The notes beneath the pieces are model-generated. The model had not been told where the DNA came from. It made no database searches and saw only the letters and a program-made list of their open reading frames with translations. From positions 29,824,001-29,888,000 of the forward strand of contig CM097885.1 of the NCBI GenBank assembly GCA_044892525.1: a stretch of DNA of 64,000 nt, read 5' to 3'. The position numbers and the translations under genes are program-made. Below are positions 33,458-36,400 of this stretch, piece by piece (position 1 is the first letter of the stretch; each line of letters opens with the position of its first letter). The stretch comes from Schmidtea polychroa. Lineage: Eukaryota.

Positions 33458-36400
33458 CACGAGTAAGAGAAAAATTTTTTAGACGACCATCTGAAATAGT
33501 CCAAAAAATTAGACTAAGTATTTTGGCTAGTGTACAAATGCTACTGCAAAAACATTTTCAAAAAATGTGGTAATGAAGAGATTTTGACAATTGGAGGAGA
33601 TGAAATTCAGATTGCAGATCTTACAAAGTCAGAAATCAGCCAAAACAAACCAGATAATCAGAATACTTCAACAATTTCTGAATTAAAGAATGAGAATCGT
33701 CAATTACGTTTGGAAATGAAAAACATGAAGAAAATGATGGAACAAATGATAAAATCAATTGAAACTTTAGAACAAATTATCAAAGACTCTGCCAAAATTT
33801 CTACAGAAAATAGAAAAACACAACCAAATTCAGATCAGATTGTGAAAATTCGAGAAAAAGAGCATTATTTAAACAAAGTGTGTGTTACACATTAATTGTA
33901 TACAAGATTGTAGATGCAGTCATTGAGGAACCAGTCCAAGATACTGTGGACCTGCCAATACCAATAGAGCCCACAGTTGTCGAAGAACCACAGATAACCA
34001 CAAACAACGAAAATATAGAAATTAGTGAAACAGATAGAGATTTGGTAGAGAAACACACAACACCTGCACCAACATCAGTCAGCAAATCAAAACAACAACC
34101 AAAAAATATCCGGTCCAAGAGCATAAAGAAAAGAAGACAAGTGGATGACACCGAATACCAAGAAAACACAAAGGATAACAAAAAAATACGTACCGGTGGA
34201 GGACCGTCAACGGCAAATACTCCACTGACCAATCTTATTATACCAAATATGAAAATCAACGATGAACTAAAAATCCAATGCAATTGCAAAAAAAATAGAT
34301 ACTCGTACTCAACAGATACCAATGCCACCAAACACTTCAAAGAGTTACATCCACAATCCGGAGATCCAATAATAGAGTGCGGAATATGCAAAGCCATCAT
34401 CACTATCAATGAAGCAATAGAACATATAGCAGTCCATAGAGAGAACAATACAAAAGAAAGGAACATACAGCAGCCCGCAATCAAACCAACAGAGGAGGAC
34501 ATCCCTACGGAGACCAGCTGACTATCACAGACAGCGATAGAATATTACATAAAATTTCTATCGCTCAGTATACCTACTCCAAACACCGTGGCCTATATCA
34601 AACCAACATGTGCCACGGACCTGATAGAGAATAATAAGGCTGGTCTCTACAGTAACATCCATTTGGATACAATCGTGGGCTCTGATAGGGTCGTATGGCT
34701 GATCCATTGGAAACTCTGTCACTGGTCAATATACCTAGCGGACAAAGAAAATAGGGAGTCGGTAATTCTTGATACTGATGACCAAATATCCGAATCAGAG
34801 AAAAGTACAATAAAGGCCAAAATGGATGAAATACTAAGGATGACTACACAGGATCAAGCCCCATTCAACAGAATATCAATTGACGAATACCCCAAACAAG
34901 ATAACGATTATGATTGTGGAGTGTTCGTTCTTCAATATATAATGGACTTCTTAGAAAATCCAGAGAGACCCTTATTCAATATGCCTGATTCAGATAAAAT
35001 AAGAACACAAATTACAACGAGCATACTAGAAGATATCAAAAAATACAAAAAATGCAACAATGAAACAAAGAATGAAGACATAGAAGACGCCATAAATCAA
35101 TTTAGACTACACCAATTATCAATAAATGACATACTTAATTGGTTCAAGAACAGATTCCTAAAAGATCAAAAGCCGAGAAGAGCATGCAGAAACGAAAATA
35201 AAAAACCCAAGCTATGCTCATACCAAATACAGAGATTATATACAATAAACTCGGGCAAAGCAATAATACAAATTCACAATGAAACATGCAAAGTTATTGA
35301 CCTAACATCAACGGCAATGGACCTGCATTTTATAAGAACAAAGCCTCCAAAGATACAAAATATGATTAATATTACGGATAAAAGACCAGAATGGGAATCA
35401 TCAAAGCCATTTACAGAGAAAGATGTATCCATTGGAATAAAAAACAGCAAAGATGCAGCACCAGGAGAGGATGGAATTCCAATAAGAGCATGGAAAGAAT
35501 GGATGCCTGAAGACCCATTAACTCCAATATTCAACAAAATAATAGAATCCAAAAACATCCCAGATTCATGGAAAACTTATGTTACAAAGTTAATTAAAAA
35601 ACTAGGCAAAAGTAACCAAGCACACAATCCGGCAAATTGGAGACCAATAGCATTAATGCCCACAAGTTATAGAATTTTTATGAAAATCCTTAACAAAAGA
35701 ATTCTCCAATGGATCCACGAACACAGGTTAATTTCGAAATGGCAAAAGGCAGTGAATATATCCAATGGGTGTGATGAACATAATTACATCATCACTGTTC
35801 AAAAAGAAAAGCCCAACAGAAAAAGATACAAAGGATGTGAATGCCACCTAGTGTTCTTGGATCTTGCGGATGCCTTCGGCAGCATTCCACACGAAGTGAT
35901 CTGGCATACTTTAGAACAGAAAGGCCTAAATAAAAACACCATAAGCCTATTGCAAGAATGCTATAAAGACTGTCACACTATATATCAAAGTGGTGACACC
36001 AGATCAAGCCAAATCAAACAAGTAAAAGGTGTTAGACAAGGATGCCCACTATCAATGACCATCTTCAGCCTCTGTATTGAATATCTAATACAAGCTGCAA
36101 TAAATAGTGGGAAAGGAGTCGAGATCGCTGGAGAGAAAATAAGCATTTTAGCATATGCGGACGATCTCGTTCTTATGGCACCACAACACTATCAAATCCA
36201 AGAAATGCTCAACATAATAGTGGAACAAGCAAAGATGGCTCACCTTATATTTAAACCCGAAAAGTGTGGTTACTACCTAAATAAAAAAGATGCTATTGGA
36301 TGGGAAAACAACATCTTTCTCGACGGAACAAAGATCAAACATATAAATGAGGAAAATCTTTACACTTACCTTGGTGTCACAGTTGGTAGCACAAAGAAAA

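Follow-up and report, generated by a model that had tools for sequence, protein, structure and literature searches.

Long interspersed nuclear elements (LINEs) of the restriction-like endonuclease type are described as having one open reading frame (ORF), and LINEs with two ORFs use reinitiation. R5 is said to have two ORFs. LIN and R5 have been placed in the NeSL clade (PMC4640811), whose elements are described as having a single ORF (PMC3636483). We analysed a 64,000-nucleotide stretch of the Schmidtea polychroa genome (GenBank assembly GCA_044892525.1, contig CM097885.1, positions 29,824,001 to 29,888,000, forward strand), here called the window, to which all coordinates refer. Three fragments in it, copies A, B and C, are best explained as pieces of R5/LIN-type (NeSL clade) retrotransposons that lack long terminal repeats (non-LTR retrotransposons). 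The window element has the NeSL-clade order of N-terminal zinc fingers, Ulp1-like protease and reverse transcriptase (RT). The C-terminal zinc knuckle and restriction-like endonuclease are missing from the truncated window copies; we read their motifs by eye in L001, a metagenomic relative, and in other proteins of the clade. NeSL-1 and Utopia-1_TSP share the order of zinc fingers, Ulp1-like protease, RT and restriction-like endonuclease (PMC4640811) but differ in being described as one protein, in having mostly W at the protease column considered below and in targeting spliced-leader or U2 genes. LIN9_SM, of the planarian R5-LIN lineage, occupies a 28S rDNA site in the same orientation as copy B (PMC4640811 S6 Fig), whereas its sequence beyond the junction, as far as that figure gives it, differs from copy B. 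We found this insertion site at the junction of copy B near 18640 and as a remnant in copy C at 37469; no named R5/LIN9_SM protein appeared among the matches of our protein searches. Against the single ORF of the NeSL clade, the frame is broken by one and the same TGA in copies A and B and in L001, and is unbroken in the related protein P0173. We propose that this TGA is probably a site of programmed UGA-C readthrough.

The frame of copy A from 33814 to 37125 has a single internal stop in 1,103 codons, the TGA at 34519-34521; a reading of the window made from the sequence alone (the sequence-only reading) had reported it as the only stop between 33880 and 37081, and it remains so over the longer interval. 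Copy B has a TGA at 19606-19608. The junction peptides are DIPTETS*LSQTAIE in copy A, where the stop is followed by CTA T, and DIPSNIA*LAQSAIE in copy B, with TGA CTA G. On re-reading both copies, the stop codons aligned without a gap in regions that are 46% identical in protein, which bears out the earlier observation of TGA-CTA at one aligned codon in two diverged copies. A further match at 50473 lies inside a 27-kb duplication and is therefore not independent of copy B. In an alignment with yeast Ulp1 (PDB 1euv_A, E=8.9e-6), the stop of copy A falls on the W of its 'WL' motif (RWLNDTIIEFF), as had been suggested. The stop had also been placed between a zinc-finger ORF and a Ulp1-RT ORF. It is indeed in frame, but it sits within the protease domain of what was ancestrally a single ORF. 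Both the catalytic H (34720) and the QxxxxDCG cysteine (34915) of the copy A protease are intact.

We searched the protein encoded after the stop against 1.84 billion representatives. The top-ranked matches were a set of 31-39% identical proteins, most of which start inside the protease domain, just past the stop site. L001, at 31% identity, has just one internal stop, which occupies this very codon (GCA TGA CTT), with 55 open codons before the TGA and 1,108 open codons after it that contain protease, RT and endonuclease motifs. It was the only locus to include the protease region among the 14 obtained from 325 candidates in the metagenome scan, and it is the only intact full ORF2 with DNA. 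We set aside a DNA alignment of these three elements, in which L001 was misplaced. The sequence-only reading had named TGG at this codon in most intact copies as the finding that would count against it; in the sequences examined, TGA-C occupied the codon in 3/3 distinct elements with DNA (A, B and L001).

A quick RT tree of 74 rows, built from unnamed proteins without a named R5/LIN or NeSL sequence, placed the window element and the protein cluster of L001 in one 13-row clade (SH-aLRT 99); P0035, which lacks the RT, was left out. The stop site was spanned by no member in 9/11 clusters of this clade (19 member proteins), compared with 6/32 protease-bearing clusters outside it (Fisher p=3e-4), a count that includes P0035, omits the fragment P0025 and rests on gene-caller starts, which are weaker than DNA. 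The cluster of P0007 was counted as spanning because its cluster-mate P0176 spans the site with Lys. Outside the clade, W stood at the site in 20/26 spanning proteins, and W occupies this column in most NeSL and Ulp1 rows of PMC4640811 S5 Fig; among the aligned proteins of the clade, none had Trp there. In P0173 and P0176 a single frame encodes zinc fingers, protease and RT, the residue at the site is E or K, and the alignment with copies A and B stays in one frame as it crosses the stop. The fused protein thus occurs in nature, and members of the clade can do without Trp here. The earlier assignment of the codon to Trp accordingly holds for the Ulp1 column and not as a requirement, given the Glu or Lys of two sister clusters.

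Public contigs from four sequencing runs were compared over 34200-35000; run X7 is without coverage at the site, run X1 may be the source of the window itself, and the poly(A) RNA run X15 contributed 0 reads and is no evidence either way. Among the 40 of 107 variant rows inspected, none fell at 34519-34524. All five indel rows were net 0, -3 or -6. Substitutions were synonymous in 9/25 cases upstream and 5/8 downstream of the stop, against about 20% expected (p=0.04 and 0.01), a count that omits 7 of the 40 rows, those at 34232-34243, which adjoin indels and lie upstream of the first ATG. This is modest evidence that both sides of the stop are coding. A stop inherited from a common ancestor over such divergence, with both flanks open, implies that the element functions with the stop, and on these comparisons we conclude that the in-frame UGA is real and maintained.

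Decay would require independent TGG-to-TGA changes in dead copies, each a single transition, and it draws support from the broken state of A and B and from the same change at another Trp of B. Under a simple decay model, however, the chance that a lone stop hits exactly this codon as TGA is p~0.004 in copy A, p~0.004 in L001 and p~0.016 in copy B. The ORF2 of L001 is complete and open, and the clade lacks a protein with W at the site, so that we regard decay as highly improbable. The same low standing applies to UGA being reassigned in the host, read as selenocysteine or removed by splicing, even though all three stops of copy B are TGA. A host reading UGA as Trp fits poorly with 15 TGG against 1 TGA in copy A and the same 15 against 1 in L001. 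As for selenocysteine, the column is characterised by Trp rather than by Cys, and none of five weak Rfam matches in L001, including about 360 nt past the ORF, belonged to a selenocysteine insertion sequence (SECIS) family. Splicing is opposed by the gap-free alignment across the stop and by the bases before the conserved Leu, which are GA, not AG.

The nucleotides around the stop resemble a known readthrough signal. All three elements have C at +4, as UGA-CUA in A and B and as UGA-CUU in L001. The type II viral signal consists of UGA-CUA and a stem 8-12 nt downstream (PMC3159437); of the two type II contexts, UGA-CUA and UGA-CGG, A and B carry the former, the context that the sequence-only reading had called leaky. 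Copy A has a predicted hairpin at about this distance (z=-5.65 against dinucleotide shuffles). None of 300 synonymous-codon shuffles folded as well, and it came first among 69 windows taken across the ORF.

Adenosine-to-inosine editing might likewise use the structure that A and B have close to the stop, and UGA changed to UGI in some transcripts would be read as Trp, restoring exactly the ancestral residue. The target A, however, is predicted to be unpaired in copy A (0.03) and L001 (0.16), though the value is 0.70 in copy B. ADARs disfavour a 5' G and favour UAG, which counts against editing. The element's own RT would presumably copy edited RNA back as TGG, erasing the stop, and the relatives have E or K, not W. 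We therefore consider editing very unlikely. Editing, decay and recoding or splicing all fit less well than readthrough.

The main rival to readthrough is reinitiation. On this account the UGA is the true terminator of ORF1, and ORF2 is made separately by termination-reinitiation or by internal non-AUG initiation near the stop, in the manner of SART1, L1 or R2, possibly using the hairpin. Reinitiation is known for non-LTR elements, SART1 requiring downstream structure (PMC5972666), and Tca2 offers a precedent for non-canonical bypass (PMC2194720). In B and L001 an ATG overlaps the stop, but it is in the -1 frame and is absent from A. The first in-frame AUG past the stop is codon 101 in A, beyond the catalytic His at codon 67, codon 49 in B and codon 48 in L001, and yet the residues directly after the stop are conserved. 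The stop takes the place of a Trp codon within the protease domain, an ordinary terminator in DNA this rich in AT would not have to be TGA in 3/3 cases, and sister elements encode a single fused protein. For these reasons we think reinitiation unlikely.

Several observations weigh against readthrough. Both window copies are broken: A is incomplete, ending at 37081 ahead of the C-terminal endonuclease, and the 451 codons of B contain, as the sequence-only reading had cautioned, further stops, two in-frame TGAs at 19474 and 19813, one of which substitutes the W of the catalytic H-W. The stem of copy B is weaker, starts 12 nt after the stop and uses another 3' arm (8/300 shuffles equally stable), the hairpin is absent from L001 (71/300 shuffles as stable), and contig variants at 34563-34565 would break the bottom pairs of the A hairpin unless compensated. 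With 40 of the 107 variant rows inspected, a minority TGG allele is possible. DNA at the site comes from three distinct elements, with the other clusters judged from gene-caller starts, and such starts also miss the site in 6/32 outside clusters and in individual proteins (P0007, P0106) whose clusters do span it. Finally, the in-frame gag-UGA-pol junction of Candida Tca2 alone gave no readthrough in a yeast reporter (PMC2194720).

Programmed readthrough nevertheless remains, in our view, the probable explanation, and the earlier proposal that ORF2 is made in this way gains support from TGA-C in A, B and L001. We infer the readthrough event, the inserted residue, the role of the hairpin and the purpose of the arrangement as follows. 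A single ancestral ORF for coiled coil, zinc fingers, Ulp1-like protease, RT and endonuclease would have come to maintain a UGA at the first conserved Trp of its protease. The majority of ribosomes would terminate there, releasing a short ORF1-like protein, and in a minority a near-cognate tRNA would insert Trp, Cys or Arg to give the full protein; UGA readthrough mostly inserts Arg, Cys or Trp (PMC13517186). Having C at +4 may aid readthrough, and in the family of this host the hairpin 11-12 nt downstream may do so too. The outcome would be a set ratio of RNA-binding protein to RT, like that of gag to gag-pol or of alphavirus P123 to P1234.

A wider possibility, which we put forward tentatively and consider doubtful, is that a deep NeSL/R5-type clade spread over several hosts has an ancient UGA readthrough site on the substrate-tunnel Trp of its own protease, which rations RT and gates a polyprotein cut after a di-glycine upstream of the zinc fingers; the inserted residue could then decide protease function. 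We take the stop column to be the tunnel Trp W448. Conserved Trp residues form the tunnel that places the di-glycine in Ulp1/SENP proteases (PMC4281951). A di-glycine motif occurred in 7/14 zinc-finger proteins with a protease and in 1/30 without (p=6e-4, a figure inflated by related sequences). That this enrichment reflects self-cleavage of the element's protein by the protease is speculative. The motif, hydrophobic-x-GG, stands 25-45 residues ahead of the first zinc finger at 34186-34203 and about 19300-19320, and in P0173 and P0176.

Coordinates of the element copies, the stop codons and the associated features in the window
Feature	Position	Strand	Basis
Piece of 28S rRNA with its end at the LIN9_SM target site, immediately 5' of copy B	18265..18640	-	Rfam LSU match; PMC4640811 S6 Fig
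5' half of copy B, decayed, with a 28S-derived ATG, a coiled coil, an N-rich region, zinc fingers, the stop and the protease	18598..20478	+	
TGA CTA of copy B	19606..19611	+	translation
5' part of copy A, coiled-coil-like, in a different frame from the zinc fingers (through decay or a junction); 33453 is the boundary given by the sequence-only reading	33453..33911	+	
Copy A frame before the stop, C-terminal part of ORF1; first ATG 34249	33814..34518	+	translation
IRTGGG motif about 25 residues ahead of the first zinc finger; candidate protease self-cleavage site	34186..34203	+	
Two C2H2-like zinc fingers	34279..34437	+	read from translation, aligned with P0176; Pfam zf-BED weak, E=0.042
TGA of copy A, opposite the tryptophan of the Ulp1 'WL' motif	34519..34521	+	translation, 1euv_A alignment
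CTA codon after the copy A stop, type II UGA-CUA context	34522..34524	+	sequence; context from PMC3159437
Ulp1-like (C48) protease domain	34522..35037	+	Pfam PF02902 E=2.2e-11; 1euv_A
Predicted hairpin of 10 bp that begins 11 nt past the stop; possible stimulator of readthrough	34533..34565	+	folding versus shuffles
RT domain	35614..36384	+	Pfam PF00078 E=2.2e-29
Duplicate of 34590-34913, which cuts copy A short of its C-terminal zinc knuckle and endonuclease	37081..37404	+	
Copy C, family fragment without zinc fingers and stop site; twin near 6543-8100	37445..38995	+	
TGA CTA in copy B's counterpart within the duplication, non-independent	50473..50478	+	duplication

The junction at 37081 recurs in contigs of runs X1, X5 and X7. 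In run X5, summed contig depth is about 15-30x higher over the protease body (34578-35000) than over the zinc-finger region, which implies that the protease piece is amplified separately there. The start of ORF1 is apparently an ATG within the antisense 28S target, in frame into the element (18598-18640; 37445-37485). The peptide from this ATG is MNAWPPQASYPCG in copy B and MKAWAATTSYPCG in copy C, which has already drifted from the rRNA; the 5' junction of LIN9_SM, read by eye from PMC4640811 S6 Fig, is likewise open for 35 codons from that ATG. Copies A, B and C are mosaic (19300-20478, 34500-35400, 37990-38990): B is distant from A at the protease start and close to it after about 20000, and C is near-identical to A at the protease start and diverged beyond, which suggests recombination or template switching between subfamilies. 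Among the relatives, a sister group (P0009, P0011, P0012, P0014, P0024, P0161) has at least two tandem Ulp1-like domains, and several of its predicted proteins start inside the first domain. Searches elsewhere confirmed as relatives 0/101 candidates in viral contigs and 1/34 in prokaryote genomes, the latter a distant RT, and the junction region drew no match in two word-index searches of proteins.

At 27% GC, the window is AT-rich and full of repeats. Its tandem segmental duplication pairs 6347-33153 with 37249-64000 at 99.1% identity, and a third copy, which is partial, occupies 768-6345. Polinton/Maverick-like fragments with a chromodomain-bearing integrase and an A32-like ATPase lie at 27083-32000 on the minus strand and also at 1841-6023 and 57930-62731. 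An ORF with a TBP-like domain (Pfam E=2.8e-15) adjoins the ATPase gene on the opposite strand, at 32004-32483 (plus strand) and 62851-63330. We also noted a weak match to signal recognition particle (SRP) RNA at 23513-23611 (minus strand) and 54364-54462, and a tandem repeat with a period of about 2.2 kb at 9767-17244.

We found no account of stop-codon readthrough in a non-LTR retrotransposon in the literature searched; the original description of R5 may already cover this boundary. The 'stop codon suppression' reported for TRE5-A concerns an engineered host gene, not the element's own stop. Beyond the sequence-only reading, our analysis contributes a distantly related element that shares the stop, relatives with a fused protein, and the hairpin. 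If readthrough is true, a stop kept at 31% identity would mean that a LINE lineage has reached a viral mode of polymerase rationing. The signal is short and directly testable, and the case would offer a route from a one-ORF to a two-product element. Annotation pipelines would then be calling active elements of the clade broken, or beginning ORF2 inside the protease.

Several known systems offer parallels to the stop. In type II readthrough, as in Sindbis virus, other alphaviruses and PSIV, UGA-CUA precedes the polymerase with a stem about 8-12 nt downstream, as in copy A (PMC3159437), and alphaviruses vary between an opal and a sense codon (PMC13517186) much as some relatives of the planarian element carry sense codons. 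These are, however, RNA viruses in which readthrough has been measured, whereas the window element is a LINE, with its stop inside the protease and a short hairpin that was not found in L001. Murine leukaemia virus (MuLV) gag-UAG-pol and Candida Tca2 gag-UGA-pol resemble the window element in having an in-frame stop before protease and RT. They differ in being LTR elements, and MuLV uses UAG-G with a pseudoknot; for Tca2, local context is described as insufficient. SART1 and L1 are non-LTR elements that likewise make less RT than ORF1 protein (PMC5972666), but they do so by reinitiation, which yields a separate ORF2 protein, whereas the window element has no conserved in-frame AUG from which such a protein could start.
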